In this document: positions 8,230 to 63,217 of the stretch, piece by piece
How positions within the stretch are numbered: position 1 is the stretch's first letter
How the letters are laid out: every line of letters begins with the position of its first letter
DNA from: Pristiophorus japonicus
Taxonomy: Eukaryota
DNA length: 64,000 bases
Assembly: GCF_044704955.1 (NCBI RefSeq)
Contig: NC_091978.1
Span: 212,598,001 to 212,662,000 of the forward strand
Direction: 5' to 3'
Notes under the pieces: model-generated
Told to the model about the DNA's origin: nothing
Seen by the model: only the letters and a program-made list of their open reading frames with translations
The model's database searches: none
Program-made: the position numbers and the translations under genes

Positions 8230-11200
8230 GGGCCCAAGTTTCCACATGATAAAAAACGGGCGCCCCTCTGAGCTGGGCGCCCGTTTTTCAAGCCTAAAAC
8301 GGCGCCTAAAAAAAACCTCGCAATTCTGGAGCATTCTGCAGCTCCTTGTCTGCCTGGCGCGGCGCCCAGGGGGGCAGAGCTTACACTCGCGCCGATTTTG
8401 TAAGTGGGAGGGGGCGGGTACTATTTAAATTAGTTTTTTTTCCTGCCGGCAACGTTGCGCGTGCGCGTTGGATCGTTCGCGCATGCTCAGTGTGAAAAAA
8501 ACATTGGCACTCGGCCATTTTTGTAGTTCTTTGTAGCTGTTTAATTTTTGAACATTTTTTTAATAAAAGCACATTAGCACTTGCAGCCTTCTCACTGTCT
8601 CCTTCCCCCCTCCCCCGCGGGAACAAAACGGCTGTTCCCTTCCCCCCTCCCCTCCGCGGGAACGAAGTGACTGTTTAATTCCTCCCCTCCCCTCCCCGGG
8701 AACGAAGTGACTGTTTAATTCCTCCCCTCCCCTCCCCGGGAACGAAGTGACTGTTTAATTCCCCCCCCTCCCCTCCGCGGGAACGAAGTGACTGTTTAAT
8801 TCCCTCCCCCCCCCCTCCCCTCCCCGGGAACGAAGTGACTGTTTAATTCCTCCCCTCCCCTCCCCGGGAACGAAGTGACTGTTTAATTCCTCCCCTCCCC
8901 TCCCCGGGAACGAAGTGACTGTTTAATTCCCCCCCCTCCCCTCCGCGGGAACGAAGTGACTGTTTAATTCCCTCCCCCCCCCCTCCCCTCCCCGGGAACG
9001 AAGTGACTGTTTAATTCCCCCCCCTCCCCTCCGCGGGAACGAAGTGACTGTTTAATTCCCCCCCCCCCTCCCCTCCCCGGGAACGAAGTGACTGTTTAAT
9101 TCCCCCCCCTCCCCTCCCCGGGAACGAAGTGACTGTTTAATTCCCCCCCCTCCCCTCCGCGGGAACGAAGTGACTGTTTAATTCCCCCCCCCCCCCCCCC
9201 CCTCCCCGGGAACGAAGTGACTGTTTAATTCCCCCCCCCTCCCCTCCCCGGGAACGAAGTGACTGTTTAATTCCCCCCCCCCTCCCCTCCCCGGGAACGA
9301 AGTGACTGTTTAAATCCCCCCCCCTCCCCTCCCCGGGAACGAAGTGACTGTTTAATTCCCCCCCCCCTCCCCTCCCCGGGAACGAAGCGGCTGTTTAATT
9401 CCCCCCCCCCCCTCCCCGGGAACGAAGTGACTGTTTAATTCCCCCCCCCCTCCACGGGAACGAAGTGACTGTTTAATTCCCCCCCCTCCCCTCCGCGGGA
9501 ACGAAGTGACTGTTTAATTCCCCCCCCTCCCCTCCCCGGGAACGAAGCGGCTGTTTAATTCCCCCCCCCCCCTCCCCGGGAACGAAGTGACTGTTTAATT
9601 CCCCCCCCCCTCCCCGGGAACGAAGTGACTGTTTAATTCCCCCCCCTCCCCTCCGCGGGAACGAAGTGACTGTTTAATTCCCCCCCCCCCCCCCCTCCCC
9701 GGGAACGAAGTGACTGTTTAATTCCCCCCCCCTCCCCTCCCCGGGAACGAAGTGGCTGTTTAATTCCCCCCCCTCCCCTCCCCGGGAACGAAGTGACTGT
9801 TTAATTCCCCCCCCCCTCCCCGGGAACGAAGTGACTGTTTAATTCCCCCCTCCCCTCCCCGGGAACGAAGTGACTGTTTAATTCCCCCCCCCCTCCCCGG
9901 GAACGAAGTGACTGTTTAATTCCCCCCCCTCCCCTCCGCGGGAACGAAGTGACTGTTTAATTCCCCCCCCCCCCCCCTCCCCGGGAACGAAGTGACTGTT
10001 TAATTCCCCCCCCTCCCCTCCCCGGGAACGAAGTGACTGTTTAATTCCCCCCCCCCTCCCCGGGAACGAAGCGGCTGTTTAATTCCCCCCCCCCTCCCCG
10101 GGAACGAAGTGACTGTTTAATTCCCCCCCCTCCCCTCCGCGGGAACGAAGTGACTGTTTAATTCCCCCCCCCCCTCCCCTCCCCGGGAACGAAGCGGCTG
10201 TTTAATTCCCCCCCCCCCCTCCCCGGGAACGAAGTGACTGTTTAATTCCCCCCCTCCCCTCCCCGGGAACGAAGTGACTGTTTAATTCCCCCCCCCCCCT
10301 CCCCGGGAACGAAGTGACTGTTTAATTCCCCCCCCCTCCCCTCCCCGGGAACGAAGCGGCTGTTTAATTCCCCCCCCCCCCCTCCCCGGGAACGAAGTGA
10401 CTGTTTAATTCCCCCCCCCTCCCCTCCCCGGGAACGAAGTGACTGTTTAATTCCGCCCCCCCCTCCCCGGGAACGAAGTGACTGTTTAATTCCGCCCCCC
10501 CCTCCCCGGGAACGAAGTGACTGTTTAATTCCACCCCCCCTCCCCTCCCCGGGAACGAAGTGGCTGTTTAATTCCGCCCCCCCCTCCCCGGGAACGAAGT
10601 GACTGTTTAATTCCACCCCCCCTCCCCTCCCCGGGAACGAAGTGGCTGTTTAATTCCGCCCCCCCCTCCCCGGGAACGAAGTGGCTGTTTAATTCCCCCC
10701 CCTCCCCTCCCCGGGAACGAAGTGGCTGTTTAATTCCGCCCCCCCCTCCCCGGGAACGAAGTGACTGTTTAATTCCCCCCCCCCCCTCCCCGGGAACGAA
10801 GTGGCTGTTTAATTCCCCCCCCTCCCCTCCCCGGGAACGAAGTGGCTGTTTAATTCCGCCCCCCCCTCCCCGGGAACGAAGTGGCTGTTTAATTCCCCCC
10901 CCTCCCCTCCCCGGGAACGAAGTGACTGTTTAATTCCACCCCCCCTCCCCTCCCCGGGAACGAAGTGGCTGTTTAATTCCGCCCCCCCCTCCCCGGGAAC
11001 GAAGTGGCTGTTTAATTCCCCCCCCTCCCCTCCCCGGGAACGAAGTGGCTGTTTAATTCCGCCCCCCCCTCCCCGGGAACGAAGTGACTGTTTAATTCCG
11101 CCCCCCCCTCCCCGGGAACGAAGTGGCTGTTTAATTCCCCCCCCTCCCCTCCCCGGGAACGAAGTGGCTGTTTAATTCCCCCCCCCCCTCCCCGGGAACG

Positions 11201-13581
11201 AAGTGACTGTTTAATTCCCCCCCCCCTCCCCGGGAACAAAGTGGCTGTTTAATTCCCCCCCCCTCCCCTCCCCGGGAACGAAGTGACTGTTTAATCCCCC
11301 CCCCCCCTCCCCGGGAACGAAGTGACTGTTTAATTCCCCCCCCCTCCCCTCCCCGGGAACGAAGTGACTGTTTAATTCCCCCCCCCTCCCCTCCCCGGGA
11401 ACGAAGTGACTGTTTAATTCCCCCCCCCCTCCCCGGGAACGAAGTGACTGTTTAATTCCCCCCCCTCCCCTCCCCGGGAACGAAGTGACTGTTTAATTCC
11501 CCCCCCCCCTCCCCGGGAACGAAGTGGCTGTTTAATTCCCCCCCCCCTCCCCTCCCCGGGAACAAAGTGGCTGTTTAATTCCCCCCCCTCCCCTCCCCGG
11601 GAACGAAGTGACTGTTTAATTCCCCCCCCCCTCCCCGGGAACGAAGTGGCTGTTTAATTCCCCCCCCCCCTCCCCGGGAACGAAGTGACTGTTTAATTCC
11701 CCCCCCCCCTCCCCGGGAACGAAGTGGCTGTTTAATTCCCCCCCCCCCCCCTCCCCGGGAACGAAGTGGCTGTTTAATTCCCCCCCCCTCCCCTCCCCGG
11801 GAACGAAGTGGCTGTTTAATTCCCCTCCCCTCCCCGGGAACGAAGTGACTGTTTAATTCCCCCCCCCTCCCCTCCCCGGGAACGAAGTGACTGTTTAATT
11901 CCCCCCCCCCCTCCCCGGGAACGAAGTGGCTGTTTAATTCCCCCCCCCCTCCCCGGGAACGAAGCGACTGTTTAATTCCCCCCTCCCCTCCCCGGGAACG
12001 AAGCGGCTGTTTAATTCCCCCCCCCCCCTCCCCTCCCCGGGAACGAAGTGACTGTTTAATTCCCCCCCCCCCTCCCCGGGAACGAAGTGACTGTTTAATT
12101 CCCCCCCCCTCCCCGGGAACGAAGTGGCTGTTTAATTCCCCCCCCCCCTCCCCGGGAACGAAGCGACTGTTTAATTCCCCCCCCCCCTCCCCTCCCCGGG
12201 AACGAAGTGGCTGTTTAATTCCCCCCCCCCCTCCCCGGGAACGAAGTGGCTGTTTAATTCCCCTCCCCTCCCCGGGAACGAAGTGGCTGTTTAATTCCCC
12301 CCCCCCCCCTCCCCGGGAACGAAGTGACTGTTTAATTCCCCCCCCCCCCCCCCCTCCCCGGGAATGAAGTGACTGTTTAATTCCCCCCCACCCCCTCCCC
12401 GGGAACGAAGTGACTGTTTAATTCCCCCCCCCCCCCCCCTCCCCGGGAACGAAGTGACTGTTTAATTCCGCTCCCCCCCCCCCCTCCCCGGGAATGAAGT
12501 GGCTGTTTAATTCCCCCCCCCCCCCTCCACGGGAACGAAGTGGCTGTTTAATTCCCCCCCCCCCCCTCCACGGGAACGAAGTGACTGTTTAATTCCCCCC
12601 CCCCCCTCCCCGGGAACGAAGTGGCTGTTTAATTCCCCCCCCCTCCCCCCCCTCCCCGGGAACGAAGTGGCTGTTTAATTCCCCCCCCCCCCTCCACGGG
12701 AACGAAGTGACTGTTTAATTTCCCCCCCCCCCCTCCCCGGGAACGAAGCGGCTGTTTAATTCCCCCCCCCCCCCTCCCCTCCCCGGGAACGAAGTGGCTG
12801 TTTAATTCCCCCCCCCCCTCCCCGGGAACGAAGTGGCTGTTTAATTCCCCCCCCCCCCTCCCCGGGAACGAAGTGGCTGTTTAATTCCCCCCCCCCCCTC
12901 CCCGGGAACGAAGTGACTGTTTAATTCCCCCCCCCCCCCCTCCCCGGGAACGAAGTGGCTGTTTAATTCCCCCCCCCCCCTCCACGGGAACGAAGTGACT
13001 GTTTAATTCCCCCCCCCCCCCCCTCCCCGGGAACGAAGTGGCTGTTTAATTCCCCCCCCCCCTCCCCGGGAACGAACGGCTGCAGAATTCTCCCTGCCTG
13101 AAGCACTTTCACACAGGTAGGAAGATGGTTTATTTAATCTTTTCTTTGCTTATAAATGTTTATTCAGGTTGGATTTATTTGTATAATATTTGTAGAAGTA
13201 TAAATAAGGATTGATTGTAGAATTTAATGAGTTCCCTCCCCCCCCCTCCCCCCCCCCCCCCCACCTCGTTCTGGACGCCTAATTTGTAACCTGTGCCTGA
13301 TTTTTTAATGTGTAGAACAGGTTTTTTCAGTTCTACAAAAATCTTCACTTGCTCCATTCTACTTTAGTTTGGAGTACGTTTTCACTGTGGAAACTTTGAA
13401 ATCAGGCGTCAGTGGCCGGACCCCCCCCCTTTTGAAGAAAAAATTCTGTTCCAAAGTAGAACTGTTCTACCTGACTAGAACTGCAGAAAAAAAAATGTGG
13501 AGAATTGTGATTTCTAAGATAGTCCGTTCTCCACCAGTTGCTCCTAAAAATCAGGCGCAAATCATGTGGAAACTTGGACCC
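8230..13581. mobile_element. PIF/Harbinger-type non-autonomous element containing a minisatellite
   Basis: TIRs GGGCCCAAGTTTCCACATGAT and ATCATGTGGAAACTTGGACCC (20/21 match). TTA target duplication at 8227-8229 and 13582-13584. Confidence 0.88.
8604..13078. repeat. Minisatellite, ~35-45 bp unit, roughly 110-115 copies
   Basis: Unit CCCCGGGAACGAAGTG(A/G)CTGTTTAATT + C(7-15) + optional TCCCC + T. Copy number estimated as length divided by unit size. Confidence 0.97.
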
Positions 13582-48627: not shown

Positions 48628-49230
48628 CATAGAATCATAGAAATTTACAGCACGGAAGGAGGCCATTTCGGCCCATTGTGTCCGCACCGGCCGACAAAGA
48701 GTTATCCAGCTTAATCCCACTTTCCAGCTCTTGGTCAGTAGCCCTATAGGTTACGGTACTTCAATTGCACATCCAAATACTTTTTAAATGTGGTGAGGGG
48801 TTCTGTCTCTACCACCCTTTCAGGCAGTGAGTTCCAGACCCCCACCACCCTCTGCGTAAAGAAATTTCCCCTCAAAACCTACCAATTATTTTAAATCTAT
48901 GCCTCCTGGTTGTTGACCCCTCTGCTAAGGTAAATAGGTCCTTTCTATCCACTCTATCTAGGCCCTTCATAATTTTATATATCTCAATAAGGTCTCCCCT
49001 CAGTCTCCTCTGTTCCAAAGAAAATAACCCCAGCCTATCCAATCTTTCCTCATAGCTAAAATTCTCCAGTCAGACACTATCCTCATAACTCTCCTCTGTA
49101 TCCTCTCTAGTGCAATCACATCTTTCCTGTAATGTGACCAGAACTGTACGCAATACTCTAGCTGTGACCTAACTAGTGTTTTATACAGGTCAAGCATAAC
49201 CTCCGTGCTCTTGTATTCTATTTGCTTTAC
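48628..49230 (-). mobile_element. CR1 3' fragment
   Basis: LYKTLVRSQLEYCVQFWS on the minus strand; tail catagaatcatagaaa. Confidence 0.85.
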
Positions 49231-49627
49231 TTGTTCATTGACTTCATTAAATTTAGCCCTCATCAACTTGGCTCCCGATAGGTTATGGCGCCCTACGTTA
49301 TGCTTGATCATTCTATGGTCACTATCACCCAGGGGTGCTAATGACTTTCATTTTGTATACATTTTCTGCATCATTAATAAAACACAAGATAAGTAGTAAT
49401 TTTCAGTGTAAAAATCAAATGCAATAATTATACATTCAATGAAAAAACTGAAAAAATAAACCCTTTTGTAAATTATACCTAGCACATTAAATCACTTAGC
49501 CAGGAGTTTGATGGCCAGAATCTGTACAAGGTTGAACTGAATGATTTTTACTGAAACTTTGAAAGTGTTGAGATTGTAATGCTAAATCCTAAAAGTATAC
49601 TGGCAGTTTTCCGTGTTATTAGATTAC

Positions 49628-49720: not shown

Positions 49721-50904
49721 CTAAAGTAATAAAATAAAACAAAGCAAGATTCATTTGCAAACAGATTCCTAAAATAGCAAATTTGCTTCTGAATATTTGG
49801 TTGACTTACTCTTTCGCCCAATTCCCCCCCCCCTCCACCCTCTCTAGCGGGTATGAGCCTGGCAGCTTGAATGAGAAAAGTTCTGAAACTCACCATGTGC
49901 AGTTTCATGACTGAACATTGATGCCCCAAAGCACTATACTATCAAGTCATTGGATAAAATATTCTTAAATTGAGGTGATGTTAATGTTGCAGGCATGTAG
50001 AGAATTATTAACAGTATATTTGTATGTTGCACTGACAAACCTTAACATGATTTAATTTTTCATTTTACAGACCATAACCTAGGTTCACAGATTCTCAGCT
50101 ATTCTATTTGGATAAATCTCTTAGTTGAGGGGCAATTACAAATTTGAAGTGTTTTTTTAAATTTAAGTGTAAACTTAGCTTGTGGTTAATGTAACAAAAA
50201 TATAGATCCCTTGGTCAGTTTCCTTATTTTGGGACTTTTCTTGCTGACGAGCACGCACGAGGCGACAGGGAACACACTTTATTGTCTGCTATGCTGAAGT
50301 CATTATTTTGGGGTTGTGGCTTATTACTTTTGAACAAAAGGCAGTTTAATATGCTAATATCTGTTGAATCACTGGTGTCACTCCAACCTATAGTGTACTT
50401 GATAGCCAGCTCAACAAAGCCCTAATTTTCCAATAATCACATCATAAAAAATATTTAGAATATCTTGTGTAATTCATATCCTGGGGTGTCTTTGAGGTAC
50501 AGATTTCGATTGAAGACTGTATTTAGGGTGTATGCATGGGTTAGATCTCTGAGATGCAAGGTCAATATACTTTGTAGTTCTTTTTGTAGATAGCTCTGGG
50601 GCCAGGACCTTCTGAACGTGGATTACATAGGATATACGGCACAGAACCAGACCATTCGGCCAAACCAGACCACGTGGACTTATATTTTTCTGTCTCTACT
50701 TAGCTCAGTCAGTCCATCATAGGTACGAAGCTAATGAGGGCTCATGAACGTGTCGCATCATATCGGAAATGAGCAAATGTTTCCATGATCAATTTTATGA
50801 TCAGTTTTGATATTTTGACATTGATGAGTATAGTAAAGTTTGTAATTACTGCAAACATATTATTAGTACTGTTCATTTACTTGATTACTGTTAAATAAAT
50901 TCAT

Positions 50905-51632
50905 GAGTTCGTGAGTTCCGAGAGGTTGTGAGTTCGGGAGTTCTGAGAGGTCGTGAGTTCGGGAGTTCCAAGAGGTCGGAGTTCCAAGAGGTCGTGGTTC
51001 CAAGAGGTCGGGAGGTCTGAGGAGCAGAAGGCTCGAAGGTCGATGAGGATTTCAATTCTGACAAGTCGGGAGGTCAGTGTGTCGACGAGTCAGTAAGGCC
51101 CTGAGGTCGGCGAGTCGGGTGTTCGGTGAGTCAGGAGGTCGGTAAGGCCCTGAGGTCGGCGAGTTGGTAAGGCCCTAAGATCGGTGAGTTGGGAGGTCGG
51201 TGAGTCGGGAGGTCGGTGAATCGGTAAGGCCCTGAGGTCGGCAAGCTGGTAAGGCTCTGAGGTCGGCGAGTCGGGAGGTCGGCAAATAGGTAGGCCCTGT
51301 GAGGTCGGCGAGTGGGGAGTTCGGAGACCGGGAGTTCGCAGGCCTCGGAGGCCGAGAGATCGGGAGGCCACAGAGGTCGGTGAGTTCGGGAGGCCACTGA
51401 GGTCGGTGAGGTGAGTTGGTAAGTAGCTCTCTCTATTCTCGATTTCTTTTTAAGTACATTTTTAACTAGATAAGGCTAACTAGAGGAATAGTAGTGCAGC
51501 TCAGTCCTGTGGAATGCACATCCTGCGGCATGTGGGAAGTCCTGGATGCTTCGTGCAGCCTAGACAACCATGTGTGCAGGAGGTGTCTAAAGGGCTGCTG
51601 ACCAAGGGCCGTGTAAATTTCTATGTTTCTAT
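50905..51632 (+). mobile_element. CR1 5' end (tandem-repeat 5' UTR + ORF1 zinc-finger start) joined to a CR1-type tail
   Basis: GAGTTCGG/GAGGTCGG repeats at 50905-51420, then QLSPVECTSCGMWEVLDASCSLDNHVCRRC, then tttctatgtttctat. Confidence 0.6.
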
Positions 51633-52311: not shown

Positions 52312-52623
52312 CTACAAAAACAACAACTTGTGTTTATATACCTCATTTCACAAAAAGAAATGCTCTATGTTGCTTCACAAATAAGGAAAACAGAACCAGG
52401 GTAGGAATTGGAGAAATGGAGTAGTAAGCAAAAGTTTTGTTCAAGAAATGGATTTTGAGGTTTTTAAAAAGGTGAAGAGAGAAGTGGAACTGCGTAGGGG
52501 TCTGGGGATGGAATCCCAGAGGGTAGCACTGGCACAACTGATGGCTCTACTATCTTATGAGAGGCAAAAAGGAGGAGCTTTGTAATGAAGGCTGGACTTA
52601 GAGGAAGAAAGTATTTGAGAGGG

Positions 52624-53123
52624 TGAAGTGGGAATTCAAGACTTAAACATGTTTTAGATTAGGAAGGCAAAAACACAATTTGCTGATGTGGCAGAATTAG
52701 TAGGTGCAACTGTAGGACAATGGTACAGTTCCTGTTATTCAGAGCTAAGGTCGTAGACCTAGGAAGTAGCTTCCTATTGTATTCAGAACTTAGAAATAAA
52801 TTCCTGTTAGTGGCAGGAGGCAGGACCCAGGATACATATGTTCATACCCAAGGAGGATGTGAAACAATTAACAAAGTTGGAATCTGCAACAAAGTGAAAA
52901 GAAATTGTCACGCAGTAGAAAGACTGACCAATGATAATGTAAATGATGATTTTGCAAAGAATTCTGTATAAAAGAAGCAGCTACTAAAGTGTTTGACGAG
53001 AATGATTCGGAAGGCATCCAGTTAAGGAACTGGTGTAGACTGTGTCTCCCTTGATCAAGCAATTAAACAATTCTTTTCTCCACAACAGACCTGTGTTGAG
53101 TGTCTTTGTCATACTCTACATCA
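52624..53123 (+). repeat. ERV 5' LTR
   Basis: TGAAG...CATCA. CCAAT 52928-52932, TATAAAA 52967-52973, ATTAAA 53062-53067. About 90% identical to the 3' LTR by manual comparison. Confidence 0.93.
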
Positions 53124-53125
53124 AA

Positions 53126-53143
53126 TGGCGTAGTCTGGCAGGA
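53126..53143 (+). promoter_or_regulatory. Primer-binding site, tRNA-Ser
   Basis: TGGCGTAGTCTGGCAGGA lies 2 nt after the LTR. It is the complement of the tRNA-Ser 3' end (TGGCGTAGTCGGCAGGA) with a 1-nt insertion. Confidence 0.85.
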
Positions 53144-54525
53144 CGCACCCGGGCGAGAGATAGACGGACGTTTGCAGACCATTAAGAGTGAGTATATTTT
53201 AAATACCACTCATAAATCTGATGTAATCTGCCGCGAAATGTGTCGGTCGCCTGGGGTGTTCGAACTTGTGAGAAAGGTCTGTAATGGTATAAAAGACTTG
53301 ACGATAATTATCAAAGTAGGATCGGCTTCGTAGGTTTGTAATTGCAGAGCCTAGGTTCAAGTAAACCAGGTTAAAGGAAACCAGGTTAAAGGGGACAACG
53401 AACCGATAGAATGGTAGACGTATCAAAAATAAATGGCGTGACAAGATATGCTAGATTAGGGGCTGGGAGGTTCGCTGAGTAGGTATTTTGCCGACGACCA
53501 TAAAAAATTGATAGTTACTATGTTATATTGTTTGCAATATAAGACCATGGCCAGGTCTCAATTAGAGGAATTGCGCAAATTAAGAGTAGGGGATAGAGTG
53601 GGTAGATCTAAGAAGAATATAACACCGACACAGAAGATTCATCTTTTGTGCCGAGGAAGAGAAAGATAAGCTTGTTGAATGAAAGTGGTTGCGTGGAAGT
53701 TTTCTTGACTATAGAATATTTGAGTGGGAGTTAATGAATTTTCCAGTTGTCTGAAAGCCGGTCTTTTAAAAGATAAATAGTGCATCTGTATCTTTGTTTT
53801 AACTCCACCCACTTTTCCGGGCAGTGAGCTGAAAGTTTTTAACCTTTGTGGCGTTGTCCTCGATGTGGGAAGTTTAAGAAAATGTGAAGAAGTTAAATTG
53901 TGTATCTCGAATTGAATGACACTTTAAGTTAGAAACACAGATATGGATTTATTTTGATGATAAGTTACAGAGCTAGAAAATGTACAAAGGATGGGTTTGT
54001 TTAACAAAAGATAAAACTTCAATTAAAAATGTGTGGTCTAATTTTAAATCAATTAGAATCATAAACAAAGTGTTGTCTTTTCAATTTGGTTATTGCAGGC
54101 CGAGACGCTCAACAATTACTTGTGTAAAAAAAACACACGTAATCATTCATTACATTGGGTTGAAAGATAATAAATTTAGTCTATGAGTGAGATAAATAAA
54201 GGAGATGGGAGAGTGTAATGTCTTTTTAAAAAAGGCCTGCGTGGGTTTCTTGAGGCTACAGGCTGGGGAAGTTCCGCCCTCGTTTCCTTTGTGTAGGATC
54301 TTATTTTAAATGACGTGAAAGCTTCTAGTTCAATAAAAGAGATTTAATAAAAAGATTTGCAGTACAGTATTTGAATTGGGATTTTGAGATATTCTTCTTG
54401 ATAAACATTTTAGTTGCATTGGAAAATCTTGGGTTTGGAAACCTTTGTAAAAGAAATAATAATAAACAGTTTAAAAAAAAATACTAAAAGTTTGGAAACA
54501 ATCTAAAAATTTTCTCTGATGAGAG

Positions 54526-56520
54526 ACAGAATTGCACGGGGACAGAATGAGACCCATAGCTTACTATTCAACCCAACAATCACCAGTAGCCGTGGGCTTG
54601 TCCAGATGCGTGGCTGCACTAGACTGCGCCACATGGGCAGTCAAGGTCAGCGAACCTGTCGTGATGACAGGCAAAATTGTCCTACACACCAAACACACTC
54701 TGGTAGAAATATTGAATACTGGAAAGCTCCAGACCGTCTTCAATGTCCGCCGAGCGAAGTGGGAAGCCGTTTTACTGCCCCACGATGAATCAGTAAAGAT
54801 AGTCAGAGACACCTGGGAAAACCCGGCAGAAGGAATCCTCACTTGGTGGAGCCCCACGAGTGTAACGCATTAGAATGGGAAGATTCCCCAGGGAATATAA
54901 GTGAGGTAGCTCTCGAAAACCCAGAGCTCACATTGTATGTGGACGGATCCCGATGGTACGTCGACAGCCACCCATGTATGGAATGGATGGTATTAAACCA
55001 ACATCTTGAGGTAGTGATGCAGGGAGCGCTGGACGGAGGCCTTTCGGCCCAAGTAGCAGAATTCACCGCACTGACGGAAGCCTTATTACTGGCAGAGGGA
55101 AAGACAGTGAATATATATACAGACAGTAGGTAAGCCTTTGGGATAGTACATGACTACATGGTAGCATGGGGAAGGAGAGGCCATCAAATATGATGAACAT
55201 ATAAAATTATTATTAGAAGCAGCCAGCAAACCAGCTAAAGCAGCAGTGATAAAGGTAAAGGCCCATTAACGAGTAGTGGATGAAATACAGCGTGGAAATG
55301 AGGCTGCGGACAATACCGCCCGAGAAGCGGCCACATCCGCAGACATAAAGATAGAGTCAGTCGGTAGCATTACTACAGAAGAGGACATAAACATAGTTAA
55401 ATTGCACGCAGATACGAACGAGGAAGAACGAGCAGAATGGGAGAGGAAGGGAGGATCACCTGGTATAGACTCCGTGTGGAGAAAGGACGGAAAGTTGTTG
55501 GCTCCTTCCTGCATTCAGCAAATGATCATGGAGTTACACCACGGCATTAACCATGCTGGGCGTAACACCATGATATCCAATATCTCATGGGATTGGTGGT
55601 GGCTGGGAATTGAGCGCGATTTTGCTAAACATTGTCAGCACTGTGTTACGTGCGCCCAACATAATGTGGGAAAAGTGATAAAAATAAGGATGGTGCACCA
55701 ACCCCGCCCACGGGGACCATGGGAAAACATACAGATTGATTTTACTGGGACCCGAATAAACTCCAGGGGAAGGAAGTACTGCTTGGTGATTATTGACCAG
55801 TTTACAAGGTGGATGGAAGCATTTGCCACCCGCAATTGTACCGCAACCACGGTAGCCTGTATATTAGCAGAAGAGGTCATTCCTAGATGGGGAATTCCCA
55901 TTCAGATAGATTCGGACCAAGGGACTCATTTCACAGGAAAGGTAATGAAGGAAACTTGTAAAATACTGAACATTAAGTAGAAATTCCAAATCCCCTACCA
56001 TCCCCAGAGTTCAGGAATGGAAGAAAGAATAAATAGAACCCTCAAAACCTCCCTGAGTAAAGCAATCCAGGGAACCGGACAGGCAGGGTCGGAACTCCTG
56101 CCCATCATATTGATGAGACTGCATGCTACACCGAACCGCACAACAGGACTCACCCCTTACGAACTAATGACTGGATGAGCAATGAAACTCCCTGAGGGAA
56201 TAGTAACAGGAGGAGTAGAGTTAGAAGCATTACGTGATAGAATTAGGAAGTATGTGATGGAACTGGGTAAGCAGTTGAAAGGTATGTGACAGGAAGTGCG
56301 AGATAAGCAGGAAGAGGAAGACGAGGATAAAGGAACAAAACCCCCGGCGGTAGTACCCGAGGTGGGGGCAAGGGTAATGGTCTAGAGTGTTATCAGAGAA
56401 ACCTGGATTCGTCCCTCGAAAGGGCGGACTCTATGAGGTATGATTAGCGGAGACACGTGGGCATGTGTAAATATGAAAGGTGGGGGCTGATGGAAACATT
56501 GGTCCCAGCTGAAAGAATAA
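54526..56520 (+). pseudogene. pol: ERV pol remnant: tether/connection, RNase H and integrase
   Basis: RPIAYYS (tether); LYVDGS..SAQVAEFTALTEAL..VNIYTDS (RNase H); HHGINH..CVTC (HHCC); IQIDF..IDSDQGTHF (DDE); WKHWSQLK (C-terminus). Multiple stops. Confidence 0.92.
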
Positions 56521-56531
56521 GGAGTGGAGAG

Positions 56532-58487
56532 ATGCATTGATAGATGGACTTTTCGGGGGACTAGGATTAATATTTGCAATACTAGGGGTACTTGCTATAA
56601 TAAAATGGATCTGGGAAAGGTCACATGCCGGAGAAACGGTGCATACAATCCGGTAGAAGTAGAAATGGTAAGAATCTAACTAAAAGCCTGGAATATCCAG
56701 GATGTGTTTTATCAACAGAATGTATATAAACGTGATCACCACCGCCCTCATAATTCTAGTAGCCCATCACCCGCCCCAGAGGGAAGTACAAGTTGTGACA
56801 ATTATACAGGAGGGGGAACGATGTTCCTGTATAAGAGGAGAACTCCAAGGTGCCCTCACATAACAAAGGGGGCCAAAGGGGGGTTAGTAATGAAATACAC
56901 GAAGGAAAAAAATACACTTTGGAATAGGACAGAAGATAATCACGATATTTCTAAATCTGACCAGATCCTGCGGGTCAAAAACAATAAGAATGTATAAAAA
57001 TCTGACACTGCGGGCCTTAGATGGATCCGAGACTAAGACCCTGAGGTTTATCACATTAAACGAGGAGGTTAGATGAAAAAGGGAGATATTAGAAATGATG
57101 GGCGCGGGATATGCGGCGGGCGTAGCCACGGTAAACACTATAGATCTCCAGATGGTAGAAGAGCAGGTTAACACATACACCCAAACCCTAAGAGGGTTGC
57201 TGGAAAGGGGAAATGATAATGAGAAAATGCAGGTCCAATTGGGAGATGGGGCCGAGCGAGAATTGTTACAAGTGGTCCACCCACTAAGGGATCATGCCAA
57301 GACAATTAACTTAATAAACGCGAACCAAAAGTACAATAGTGAAAGTGGACGAAATGCCGCAGTATGCGCCGGGTATGGAGCATGGATGATAAGTACAGTA
57401 GAACATAACTTAGAACAGCTACAAAATGGGGAGGTCCCAGATTGGATAACCATTGATGTATTCAGGGAATGGACCTTGAGAAAAAGGGAAACAGATGCCT
57501 GTGAAATTAGACGAAACAGCCATGCATGGGTTCCTAAAACTAAATGTGTAACTGGTCATCAGAATATAATCGGATTTGTACTGTCAATACCACAATATGA
57601 TGTGACCAAGAGAAACCTCCTGTATAAAGTTGACAATATAGGAGAAATAAGAAACCAAACACGGGTCAGATACCACAAACTGCACCAATATGTTATTAAG
57701 AAGGGAGATGATGCCAAGGGTGTGTGCATTACAGATTGTTATAAGAATAACCAGGTTGGTTTGTGCTGAGAACATCCCAAATTTGATCAAGATGATTGTG
57801 GATACAGCCGTACAGAAGGATGCATCCTGAGCATAACCGTGCTGATGCTGGATTTCAAGACAACAGCAGCACCACGAAGTAATGGGCAATGGTGTGTCAG
57901 CACCACAGCCACAAACATGACTGTGGGAGGAGTAACACACTGCCCACTGCCCCATCACTACCACCGACTTTTGCTTTATGATCAGAGAAGAGGTTAATAT
58001 TCAGGGACATATTATATATCCAGAATTAAAAGAAGAAACTATCAGTGGAATAATGGTAGACACTATAAAGGCAGGGTACGAAGGCTTCAAAGAGCCTCAA
58101 GGAAAACCTATTTCCAAACTAAGTGAGGAACAGACAGCGTTGGAGAAGAGTGTCCCTGAGCAATGACAAAAATACATCATCCTGATGAAAGAGATTGTTG
58201 AGCTGCAAAAGGACACGAAGAAAGTGCTGGCCAATTAACCCTGGTATACACGACTATGGGATTTGGGACTTAATGTTCATGTACACCCTTGGATAAGAAT
58301 TATGTCACATGTATTAGTGATAGTGCAGATGTTGGTTATACTTATATTACTGTTTGACTGGTGCTTTAGATGTAGGAGGAGAAGGATGAAAGCGCTGGTA
58401 AAAGCCGCTCATAAATACGAAAGGAAGCCTTCGCTGAAAATAGGTAACAGGCGAGACGAACCAAACCAACACGACTACCTGATATGA
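56532..58487 (+). pseudogene. env: ERV env remnant of atypical architecture
   Basis: Hydrophobic leader GLGLIFAILGVLA; furin-like R*KR at 57071-57082; fusion-peptide-like EILEMMGAGYAAGVATVNTIDL; heptad region; Cys-rich region; anchor IMSHVLVIVQMLVILILLF and a basic tail. Confidence 0.82.
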
Positions 58488-58611
58488 ATCGTGAGTGTCC
58501 CAATCCTATCGCCTGATTAACGAAATCGGGGTGGGAGACACACAAGCCTAGTAAGGTAAAAGAATTGGTCACGGTGGGTTAATAGAATAACCATGTGACC
58601 AAAGTGGGGAT

Positions 58612-59112
58612 TGAAGCAGGTATTAAGGAGTTAAACATGTTTTAGATTAGGAAGGCAAAAACACAATTTGCTGATGTGGCAGAATTAGCACTGTAGGACA
58701 ATGGTACAGTTCCTGTTATTCAGAGCTAAGGTTGTAGGCCTAGGAAGTGGCTTCCTGTTGTATTCAGAACTTAGAAATAAATTCCTGCTGGTGGCAGGAG
58801 GCAGGATGTAGGATACATATGTTCATACCCAAGGAGGATGTAAAACAATTAACAAAGTTGAAATTAAACAATCTCTAACAAAACAAAAGAAAATTGTCAC
58901 GCGGTAGAAAGACTAACCAATGATAATGTAAGTGATGACTTTACAAAGAATTCTGTATAAAAGAAGCAGCTCCTAAAGTGTTCGACGAGAACGGTTGGGA
59001 GGGCACCCAGTTAAGGAATTGGTGTAGACCGTGTCTTCCTTGATCAAGCAATTAAACAATTATTTTCTCCACAACAGGCCTGTGTTGAGTGTCTTTGTCA
59101 TACTCCACATCA
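58612..59112 (+). repeat. ERV 3' LTR, preceded by the polypurine tract AAAGTGGGGA (58601-58610)
   Basis: TGAAG...CATCA followed by the TSD GAGGG. Confidence 0.93.
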
Positions 59113-59972
59113 GAGGGTATATAGGGTTGGAGGAGATTGCAGAGCTAGGATGGGGCAAAACCATGGAGGAATTTATAGGGCAGGATTTTGAATTTAAGGT
59201 ATTGCAGCATGAGGAGCCAATGCAGATCATCACGGATGGTGATTATGGTGAGTAGGACTTAGTTCAGGATATGGAGGGTGAAGTTTGGGAGACTACCAAA
59301 GAGTAGTCATGGAGAGAGATAGAGCTGGTATCATCATTGTATATGTGAAAATGATCTCATACCTGCTAATAATGTTGCCGAGACATATGTAGATAGAGAA
59401 GAAGGGGCAAAGATAGATGTTTTGGGAACTCTGCTGGCAGTAGTGTGAGGAAGGAAGAGAAGGCATTGATGAAAGTGCACTGGCTACATTTGGACAGTTA
59501 CGGTTTGGACAGTTACGGACAGAACTATGCAAGAGCAGTCCTAAAGAGGTGAATGGAGAGGTGTTGGAGGATGATGATGTGGTTATTCTCATTGGATGCT
59601 GAGAGAAAGTCAAGAAGGAATAATGCACCATGGTTACAGTCATAGTGGATGTCATTTGCAACTCTGGGTAGTGCCATTTTGGTGCTGTAAGAAAGATAGA
59701 AAGCAAACTGGAAGGATCTCAATGGGAAGTTCTTGTCGACATAGGTATTGAGCTGGGATATGATGAGATGTTCAAGGACATTAGAGAAGAAAAGCAAGTT
59801 GAAAATTGCATGATAGTTGGATAGGACAGATGAGTTGAGGTTAGATTTTTTGAGGATGTAAAGAGTTAATGTTGGCTTTGAAGAGAGAGGGATAATGTCC
59901 GAGTAAAGGGAACCATTAACAATGCTGGCTAGTATATATGCCAGGAAGGGCAGTTGAGTGATCAGAAATTAA

Positions 59973-61355: not shown

Positions 61356-63217
61356 CATAGAAACATAGAAAATAGGAGCAGTAGTAGGCCATTCAGCCCT
61401 TCGAGTCTGCACCGCCTTTCAATATCATGGCTGATCCTTTATCTCAACACCATATTCCCGCTTTTTCTCCATATCCCTTAATGTCTTTTGTTTCTAGAAA
61501 TCTATCTATCTCCCTCTTAAATATATTCAGTGACTTGGCCTCCACAGCCTTCTGTGGTACAGAATCCCACAGGTTCACCACTCTCTGAGTGAAAATATTT
61601 CTCCTCATCTCGGTCCTAAATTTCCGACCCCGTATCCTGAGACTGTGACCCCTTGTTCTAGACTTCCCAGCCAGGGGAAACATCTTCCCCGCATCCAGTC
61701 TATCCAACCCAGTCAGAATTTTATATGTTTCAATGAGATCCCCTCTCATTCTTCTAAACGCTAGTGAATACAGGCCTAGTCGACCCAATCTCTCCTCATA
61801 CGACAGTCCTGCCATCCCAGGAATCAATCTGGTGAACTTTTGCTGCATTCCCTCTATGGCAAGTATATCCTTTCTTAGGTAAGGAGAGCAAAACTGCACA
61901 CAATATTCCAGGTGCGGTCTCACCAAGGCCCTGTATAACTGCAGCAAGACATCCTTGCTCTTATACTCAAATCCTCTTGCAATGAAGGCCAACATACCAT
62001 TTGCCTTTCTAACTGTTTGCTGCACCTGCATGTTTGCTTTCAGTGACTGGTGTACAAGAACACCCAGGTCCCTCTCTACATCAACACTTCCCAAGCCATC
62101 ACCATTTAATAATACTTTGTCCTTATGTTTTTCCTACCAAAGTGGATAACTTCACATTTATCCACGTTATACTGCATCTGCCATGTGTTTGCCCACTCAC
62201 TCAACCTATCTAAATCACATTGCAGTGTCTTTGCATCCTCCTCACAACTCACAATCCAACCAAGTTTTGTGTCGTCAGCAAACTTGGAAATATTACATTT
62301 GGTTCCCTCATCCAAATCATTTATATATATTGTAAATAGCTGGGGCCCAAGCACTGATCCCTGTGGTACCCCACCAGTCACTGCCCGCCAACCCGAAAAT
62401 ACCAGTTTATTCTTTCTCTCTTTCCTGTCAGTTAACCAACTTTCAATCCATGCCTGTATATTACCCCCAAATCCTTTGTGTTTTAATTTTGCACACTAAC
62501 CTCTTATGTGGGACTTTATCAAAGGCCTTCTGAAAATCCAAAATACACTACATCCACTGGTTCTCCCTTATCTATTCTATCAGTTACATCCTCAAAAAAC
62601 TCCAGTAGGTTTGTCAAACATGATTTTCCTTTCATAAATCTATGTTGACTTTGTTTAATCCCGTTGACATTATCTAAGTGTGCCGTTATCATATCCTTTA
62701 AAATAGACTCTAGCATTTTCCCTACTACTGATGTTAGGCTAACCGGTCTGTCGTTCCCCGTTTTCTCTCTCCATCTTTTTTTAAATAGTGGGGTTACATT
62801 TGCCACCCTCTAATCTGCAGGAACTGTTCCATATTCTATAGAATTTTGGAAGATGACAACCAATGCATATTTCCATGGCTACCTCTTTTTAGTATTCTGG
62901 GATGCAGATCAGCAGGCCCTGGGGATTTTTCAGCCTTCAGTCCCATTAGTTTCTCCAGCACTATTTTCTTACTAATAATCATTTCCTTTAATTCCTCTTG
63001 TTCACTAGACCCTTGGTTCCCTAGAATTTCTGGGACGTTATTTGTGTCCTCTTCCACTCTTCCATGAAGACAGAACCGAAGTATTTAATTAATTGTTCTG
63101 CCATTTCCTTGTTCCCCATTACAAATTCTCCTGTTTCCAACTGTAAAGGACCTATATTTGTCTTCAATAATCTTTTTCTTTTTACGTACTTGTAGAAACT
63201 TTTGCAGTGGGGTTTTA
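61356..63217 (-). mobile_element. CR1 LINE (RT + 3' end), interrupted at ~63217
   Basis: Minus-strand ORFs 61444-62094, 62106-62381, 62519-62806 and 62836-63057; tail catagaaacatagaaa. Confidence 0.92.

Follow-up and report, generated by a model that had tools for sequence, protein, structure and literature searches.

Envelope (Env) proteins resembling the fusion (F) proteins of paramyxo- and pneumoviruses have been published for two basal branches of the retroviruses, the lokiretroviruses (Loki) and the foamy viruses. A lack of structural likeness to orthoretroviral Env has been used to support the subfamily split (PMC11468914), and Wang and Han kept four scenarios open for how Env arose. 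Described here is an env gene from a 64,000-nucleotide stretch of the Pristiophorus japonicus genome (NC_091978.1, positions 212,598,001 to 212,662,000, forward strand), the whole of which is referred to as the window. The gene sits within a dead, internally deleted 6.5-kb provirus (52624-59112). We consider it very probable that it is the broken env of an internally deleted member of a many-copy endogenous retrovirus (ERV) family, with a polymerase that is likely like that of snakehead retrovirus (SnRV) and an Env predicted to be of class Ib. F-like retroviral Envs are already known; the SnRV-like shark and frog lineage and its architecture appear to be new, and the family would add a third retrovirus branch with an F-type entry protein beside the lokiretroviruses and foamy viruses. 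For SnRV-like and epsilon retroviruses, no description of an Env with the F fold was found in the literature covered, which lay mostly outside subscription journals and included PMC12193657.

The predicted Env fold is well supported by modelling as being of the paramyxo-/pneumovirus F type, in common with foamy Env (class Ib). An AlphaFold model, built with 46 sequences, was made of the env product of copy L033, a member of a sister family with an open frame. Its mean predicted local distance difference test score (pLDDT) is 58, with most ten-residue blocks of residues 171-230 and 341-560 at 70-87. Foldseek against the PDB gave 232 matches at E ≤ 0.001 with this model, and all those listed are F proteins, including respiratory syncytial virus (RSV) F (6apb, E-value 7.6e-11) and human parainfluenza virus 3 F (1ztm, E-value 1.5e-10). 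No orthoretroviral transmembrane (TM) subunit was found among the structure-search matches listed. With VIA-align, the model aligned to 1ztm over 327 residues (Z 12.3, root-mean-square deviation [rmsd] 14.4) and to Langya virus F (8tvg) over 306 residues (Z 11.6, rmsd 5.9). When 48,161 chains were searched without bias, F proteins and foamy Env filled the top 13 rows (Z 10.7-6.0, with foamy Env scoring 8.0 and 7.7), and short coiled coils came next. Residues 177-565 of the model align to F residues 26-430, so that the match begins within the N-subunit, whose contribution to the core is the class Ib arrangement (PMC11468914). A nested domain I-III core drawn from both the N- and C-subunits, by which class Ib is defined, is present in the model, and the F fold is predicted to begin ~80 residues before the end of the N-subunit and to extend through the beta domains. 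The class Ib order of basic cleavage site, fusion peptide, heptad repeat 1 (HR1), HR2 and membrane anchor is also present, although a stop breaks the site in the window copy.

A frame of 300 residues from the window itself, its stop entered as X, was modelled at a mean pLDDT of 65. Its first structural match was foamy Env rather than a paramyxo- or pneumovirus F (Foldseek 8rm1, E-value 6.4e-7), with human metapneumovirus (hMPV) F at 1.4e-5 and then RSV F. Both models have the succession of helix, Cys-rich beta region, second helix and membrane anchor that a first-pass annotation had read from the DNA. A language-model search of the ESM Atlas pointed the same way, its top three clusters carrying PF00523 at 0.95. 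The proposal in that annotation of an F-like Env, for which structure prediction and Foldseek had been advised, thus holds as to an F-type fold, on two models and the language-model search, but not as to a closer likeness to F than to foamy Env. Matches in BFVD also include lispivirus and baculovirus F-type proteins, and the unnamed 928-residue A0A384ZVF2, at rank 2, has the highest identity (17%).

In the window, the env gene is preceded by a splice-acceptor-like site (56700-56718, + strand, as are all parts of the provirus given below), a pyrimidine-rich tract and AG adjoining the start codon. The start (ATG at 56720) opens a signal-peptide-like segment (56720-56764) which is out of frame with the core. 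The F2-like core of the N-subunit (56851-57070), comprising a Cys-Pro...GGLV strand, a second strand and a helix, matches L033 Env residues 164-270 by tblastn, and this region of the model aligns to F from residues 26-38 onward. The basic furin-type cleavage site, AGA-TGA-AAA-AGG, was found as annotated, at 57071-57082, with a stop inside it (57074); among 18 copies displayed, R-x-K-R is intact in eight and the stop lies at the same codon in six. Directly after it comes the putative fusion peptide (57083-57148), EILEMMGAGYAAGVATVNTIDL, also as annotated, with G281 and G285 (L033 numbering) retained in 72% and 94% of aligned rows, respectively. The post-cleavage subunit (57083-58487) would hold the HR1 helices, the Cys-rich beta domains, HR2, the transmembrane stretch (58293-58367) and a short tail. 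It measures 1402 nt, or ~467 codons with one frame change, close to the ~465 codons first estimated, and ends at the stop at 58485. Stops occur at 57074, 57767, 58164 and 58236, and the frame changes behind the signal-peptide segment, around 56905 and around 57950-57966; three of the stops and one frame change break the post-cleavage subunit itself. This env copy is an inert fossil.

The absence of CX6CC was borne out in all three frames of 57083-58487, and the motif is likewise missing from the env of L033, L055, L059 and L074; the string occurs in one of 36 homologues, in its membrane anchor. A gamma-type TM, with CX6CC after an immunosuppressive domain (ISD) in a subunit of ~200 residues, was rejected for the window env on this ground, on the post-cleavage length of 458-467 residues and on the lack of a TLV_coat match. 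At L039:3178-4002, just upstream of a long-type copy of the family, there is an unrelated ERV whose env is of the ordinary gamma type (TLV_coat 3.6e-15).

Other parts of the first-pass annotation needed revision. Its integrase stop was found at 56518-56520, but the hydrophobic leader that it placed at 56532 belongs, as the membrane segment, to a different, small open reading frame (ORF) between pol and env, for which a start and a stop of its own are present in L009 and other long-type copies; 56532 was therefore rejected as the env signal peptide. From the ATG at 56720 there are ~120 codons before the cleavage site, not ~180. The 'small-N' architecture applies to the window copy but is partly an artefact of a truncated sub-lineage, as relatives with a long open env frame have ~250-350 residues before the site. 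The remnant of the small ORF, with a single membrane segment, lies at 56522-56656 and was delimited by a three-frame comparison of 30 copies. In long-type copies it has ~65 codons, its own ATG and one membrane segment after the integrase stop, which its start overlaps (L003, L005, L009, L024). It continues the integrase frame in nine of the 14 short-type copies printed, and both types share the end MVR(L/I)-stop. We would guess at an accessory protein of the Vpu or SH kind.

The genome was searched with 228 post-cleavage residues, and 150 of 15,914 candidates were scored, giving at least 150 copies. As all 150 scored places match the window env (60-100% identity), its features are not due to chance. 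The 30 closest copies comprise seven of a long type, 17 of a short type (start and core both located) and six incompletely typed. In the long type the small ORF and the acceptor-like site are followed by a signal peptide, then by a domain of ~130 residues that is rich in Cys, and by a Pro/Thr linker. The acceptor-like site was located in the 17 short-type copies, with an equivalent in the seven long-type copies and four sister-family frames. Upstream DNA was compared for ten close copies (five long, four short, one untyped). Protease and reverse transcriptase (RT) matches were found in all five long-type copies and gag in four, L049 matching only the protease end of the query. Of the short-type copies other than the window's, three of four have only tether, RNase H and integrase, as in the window, and the fourth only integrase; the untyped copy gave no match of the window family. 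In none of the 17 short-type copies can the signal-peptide frame be read into the core without meeting a stop, and 12 of these stop at codon 20. On these comparisons together, the sub-lineage likely lost gag-protease-RT, the N-terminal domain and the in-frame env start before it spread. It was likely copied in trans with proteins from complete relatives.

Open-frame copies, for which the first-pass annotation had advised a search, occur in the sister family, which is 61% identical over the 228 post-cleavage residues and has open env frames of 730-731 codons (L032, L033); L033 has 458 residues after R-T-K-R. Between the window and sister families, env dN is 0.30 with dS saturated, which argues for past purifying selection. 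A net dN/dS test of long against short types over the post-cleavage part found no net divergence and no signal. In L032, L033, L035 and L037 the env frame has no ATG ahead of the signal-peptide core and there is an acceptor-like site at this point, so that an upstream exon likely supplies the start codon.

In the long-type and sister copies, Gag has a pair of CCHC knuckles, a stop is followed by the protease in the same frame, and YVDD is present; the knuckles and the in-frame stop before the protease were found in L044, L038 and L045. The RT-RNase H region scores 300 bits to murine leukaemia virus (MLV), 165 to foamy virus and 122 to Ty3, and RNase H alone 100 bits to MLV or xenotropic MLV-related virus against 27-28 to foamy virus. 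Over the 109 RT positions shown for SnRV, a hand tally with the L038 RT gave ~48 identities to SnRV, 38 to WDSV (walleye dermal sarcoma virus) and 35 to Loki-Sri. Trees were built of RT (126 rows, three further hits being dropped for short coverage), of integrase (45 rows chosen from the panel) and of a reduced RT set. They group the family with shark (a Mustelus cluster, Heterodontus) and teleost Pols, outside rows judged gamma/epsilon-like from host and Pfam. On these sequence comparisons the polymerase is likely SnRV-like (class III, clade Huo). Among the loki-, snakehead- or ERV-S-like affinities first proposed, the snakehead one is favoured by RT motifs and identity, and the other two fail on their defining features.

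With SnRV and the ERVs of clade Huo, the family shares the RT motifs LDI.NGFW, RLT.DY and YP.VAS and its highest hand-tallied identity. SnRV-like members in sharks are known from CmiERV lineage I of the elephant shark, as given in PMC4422223, and SnRV makes small extra ORFs from spliced mRNAs. SnRV has a 3′ ORF and a cytoplasmic tail of 136 residues; the family has no 3′ ORF and a tail of ~35. The likeness is one of RT; the passages covered on SnRV do not give its Env type, and the env homologue searches, in which 10 of 36 profile hits were looked up by name, returned no named SnRV Env. XtERV-S, ERV-S and ERV-L (PMC8278194) share the class III affinity, a 5-bp target duplication and gag and pol in one frame with TGA. 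However, they have YIDD and no Gag zinc finger; a dUTPase is present in ERV-L and XtERV-S, and Env is either of gamma type, bearing ISD and CX6CC, or absent. The family has YVDD, two knuckles, no dUTPase match and an Env of predicted F fold, and an ERV-S/ERV-L assignment was rejected on YVDD, the knuckles and the Env.

Foamy Env (8rm0, 8rm1, 8ozh; PMC11468914) has the same predicted class Ib core and, after the cleavage site, a subunit that exceeds 400 residues and lacks CX6CC. The family differs in its ordinary signal peptide, where foamy Env has a membrane-anchored leader, and in an accessory domain ahead of the core. Its two Gag knuckles, single gag-pol frame and MLV-type RNase H also differ, and a foamy (Spumaretrovirinae) backbone, with a knuckle-less Gag and pol in another frame that has its own start, was rejected. 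With paramyxo- and pneumovirus F proteins (1ztm, 6apb, 3maw, 5l1x) the predicted order of F2, cleavage site, F1, HR1, two beta domains, HR2 and membrane anchor is the same; the family Env is retrovirus-encoded, and it has its own variable N-terminal domain instead of a separate attachment protein. The Envs of the walleye viruses, which the literature calls uncharacterised and sets apart from those of other orthoretroviruses, also match the L033 model by Foldseek in their BFVD models (walleye epidermal hyperplasia virus 1 Q9WHI8, E-value 2.2e-8; WDSV A4GTG3, 6.7e-7), at 1159-1317 residues and with TM-scores by query of 0.23 and 0.09; the family RT is not epsilon-like. The first-pass premise that epsilon-type TMs are of ~200 residues with CX6CC fails for the walleye viruses.

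A number of points weigh against the reading of a class Ib Env on an SnRV-like polymerase. Residues 1-167 of L033 are unmodelled, both models are moderate (pTM 0.41) and monomeric, whole-chain rmsd is large and the TM-score by query is ~0.3. A wide VIA search with the window fragment reached Z ≤ 6.9 with mostly helical bundles (RSV F 6.0, hMPV F 5.9). Hmmscan gave no PF00523 match at E ≤ 1 in the window or relative env frames, and phmmer and hmmsearch against PDB sequences matched no solved fusogen. The trees lack reference SnRV, ERV-L, foamy and Loki rows, and that of integrase has no row for CGIN1, to which Loki integrase is close; their outer rows form a grade and no supported clade, and their root is a very long branch; the SnRV-like placement is put only at likely because of the missing references and the grade. 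In the PDB, the integrase matches that of foamy virus best, in a set with few retroviral integrases. Within-group dN/dS values of 0.42, 0.55 and 0.19 are biased by the picking of top hits and by the counting method. The low pTM, the large rmsd, the helical bundles and a sequence identity to F of 9-13% would all suit a generic match, in which coiled coils and small beta domains belong to a diverged ordinary retroviral Env. Yet 250-330 residues align without a break, beginning at the F2 strand and taking in the two beta domains, at scores above those of unrelated rows (Z ~6). In addition, the ESM features, drawn from sequence alone, point to the same family, and neither the structure matches listed nor the rarity of CX6CC suggests an orthoretroviral TM, so that this explanation is scarcely credible.

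The same fold could also have been acquired by recombination, as a stripped-down spumavirus Env captured from a foamy-like virus onto a snakehead-like backbone. The best Foldseek match of the window fragment is indeed foamy Env (8rm1_D, 16% identity; 8ozh, 17%), the Z of 8.0 for prefusion foamy Env equals that of several F rows, and foamy-like ERVs occur in sharks, CmiFLERV being placed in the supplementary tree of PMC7947760. A distant family with the same env class has an RNase H not of MLV type, so domains have been swapped in the group. The full L033 model, however, aligns longer and better on F (Z 12.3 against 8.0), and an extra domain stands before the F2-like strand, whereas the leader peptide of foamy Env contains a second membrane segment and the receptor-binding domain (RBD) lies within the N-subunit (PMC11468914). 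Five env lineages only 21-31% identical beside the same RT motif type suggest long residence, and such a capture is judged unlikely. That the element is a lokiretrovirus, extending their range to cartilaginous fishes, is largely refuted and hardly tenable. In PMC7947760, an F-like Env with an RXKR site is the Loki hallmark, the gag-pol-env order and the tether plus RNase H are the same, and the start of an amphibian Loki Env shows a similar first strand. Against this, the Loki host list there has no cartilaginous fish, and the Loki RT rows displayed in its supplementary alignment, compared by eye, have QYKIP/KYRIP, SRWP/SRC and PFGY.NSP in place of the QYP, YPIVAS and PQGFHNS of the family. 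Loki RNase H groups with that of foamy viruses and Loki Env has a PF00523 sequence match, whereas in the family RNase H is of MLV type, Env has an additional domain at its N-terminus, the fusion peptide is weakly hydrophobic and no PF00523 match was found by sequence, although fold and ESM features point to PF00523; the assignment was rejected on the RT motifs and RNase H. For the short type, it was considered whether a working Env lacking the N-terminal domain was made through hidden splicing or recoding and spread by reinfection. The acceptor-like site and signal-peptide-like segment retained in 17 copies and a dN/dS of 0.55 (interval 0.42-0.73) would favour this, but that estimate is biased low, 12 of the 17 share the codon-20 stop, the copies checked are without gag-protease-RT and the post-cleavage part has no net divergence from the long type. 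We regard this as improbable.

The preferred reading remains a many-copy ERV with a predicted class Ib Env and a likely SnRV-like polymerase. The ancestral virus would have expressed from a spliced mRNA an Env precursor bearing a signal peptide, which may have trimerised before being cut by furin. In the N-subunit, an N-terminal domain that varies and could be exchanged, likely the part that binds the receptor, would be followed by a Pro/Thr linker and the F2-like core. This subunit would stay built into the fusion machine, likely disulfide-linked, and the conserved C233 and C367 are candidates for the inter-subunit bond. On triggering, the fusion peptide would insert and HR1 and HR2 would refold to a six-helix bundle, as in F proteins. 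The steps of trimer formation, priming, insertion and bundling are modelled on known F proteins and foamy Env. The window copy itself would come from the short sub-lineage, likely copied by the proteins of complete relatives and now inert.

A profile run against 1.84 billion representatives yielded 36 hits with E ≤ 0.001; word-seeded searches returned 0 of 7558 candidates with a single env and 1 of 8000 with alignment A2. Among sequencing runs, no RNA dataset was listed as a holder, which has no bearing on expression. The ten profile hits looked up by name belong to four sharks (Mustelus, Chiloscyllium, Pristiophorus, Heterodontus) and four frogs (Pelodytes, Mantella, Bombina, Xenopus tropicalis), with one unnamed; the cartilaginous-fish host that had been supposed fits these closest named relatives. 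In surveys of Env in fish and amphibians the baits were of gamma and beta type, according to bioRxiv 2021.11.23.469661. Because of these baits, and because Pfam is blind to the family, the env genes are unnamed in shark and frog annotations. A cluster in Mantella aurantiaca (P0219) has 16 members, mostly of 677 residues, on several chromosome-scale contigs, which suggests recent activity. Three shark gene models, P0211, P0213 and P0216 (Niban 1-like, cadherin-related, fbxo15), contain env pieces, which are annotation errors or exonised ERV fragments. For the N-terminal domain no usable match was found in the ESM Atlas. V-set matches in two homologues, P0220 (E-value 0.045) and P0217 (linked to env by a short stretch only), and the UniRef label of P0191 suggest that it may sometimes be immunoglobulin (Ig)-like.

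Further families occur in the same genome, with 124 of 124 scored places 86-100% identical to P0193 and 69 matches to P0191. The env frames of L055, L074 and L059 are 23-27% identical to the window family and have an R-x-K/R-R site and unrelated N-terminal parts. In all, five env lineages are 21-31% identical, with the same RT motif type beside each where RT was found. Among 16 upstream stretches examined for the P0193- and P0191-type families, seven gave an RT frame of tree length; all seven fall outside the gamma/epsilon-like rows, adjoining a frog Pol, and six have LDISNGFW, the seventh not spanning the motif. L075 and L076, near L074, have the same env class and similar RT motifs, but their RNase H scores best to RNase H1 (42 bits; foamy 37.5, MLV 31), possibly through a further replacement. 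L059 (G000:C18:30167389-30169392, - strand) is a 786-codon open env frame within a gag/pol-deleted provirus whose LTR (long terminal repeat) pieces are 86-88% identical, with ~40 related places at 84-96% identity. An open frame is unexpected at such LTR divergence, and this env may therefore have been kept by the host. L059 was rejected as an orthologue of the Chiloscyllium protein, to which it is 45% identical against 75-76% for broken genome copies elsewhere.

A tentative wider possibility is that the F-fold Env was ancestral to Retroviridae and survives in the lokiretroviruses, the foamy viruses, the SnRV-like lineage of sharks and frogs and the walleye viruses, the surface-TM type (class Ia) being a later replacement. 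In the shark and frog lineage the F core would act as a one-chain fusogen with exchangeable, sometimes Ig-like, RBDs, and some long-open-frame copies may be host-kept. A predicted F-fold Env on a backbone with a knuckled Gag, in-frame gag-pol and MLV-type RNase H, occurring across sharks and frogs, together with the walleye matches, favours such an order of events, and the many natural open env frames make it testable.

The segment 52624-59112 is an endogenous retroviral provirus, with LTRs, primer-binding site (PBS), polypurine tract, target duplication, tether, RNase H, integrase and env. The 5′ LTR (TG...CA, 52624-53123) and 3′ LTR (58612-59112), paired through repeats D2-D4, are ~500 bp long and 91% identical (450 of 494 aligned bases; Kimura two-parameter distance 0.089-0.094), and are flanked by the same five bases at 52619-52623 and 59113-59117. 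Two rates from the cited papers, 2.2e-9 and 2.2e-10 (the latter assumed for sharks), would give an age of ~20 or ~200 million years. Two bases after the LTR lies the PBS, an 18-mer starting with TGG (53126-53143) and the same in L044 and L047. It is presumably of the tRNA-Ser type, a feature which we take to be common to the family and XtERV-S, ERV-S and ERV-L; the window has no tRNA gene for comparison. The leader and remnant (53144-54525) are without gag, protease and RT polymerase domain, and queries for these from relatives gave no tblastn match between the LTRs at E 0.01. The broken pol remnant of tether and RNase H (54526-55290; RT_RNaseH 2.5e-5, RNase_H 7.1e-8) is 52-60% identical to L045. 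A broken integrase follows at 55480-56520, with zinc finger, core and C-terminal part (Integrase_H2C2 1.7e-10, rve 5.3e-15; used in the tree), and a purine-rich, polypurine-tract-like segment precedes the 3′ LTR (58597-58611).

Elsewhere in the window, a GC-rich degenerate tandem repeat (family D1, 50900-51430) lies ~1.2 kb upstream of the 5′ LTR, and a 4-kb block at 9000-13000 has a GC content of ~0.63 and a strong C skew. Long interspersed element-type RT fragments, which we take to be CR1-like, are located at 61444-63084 and 49000-49347, both on the - strand.

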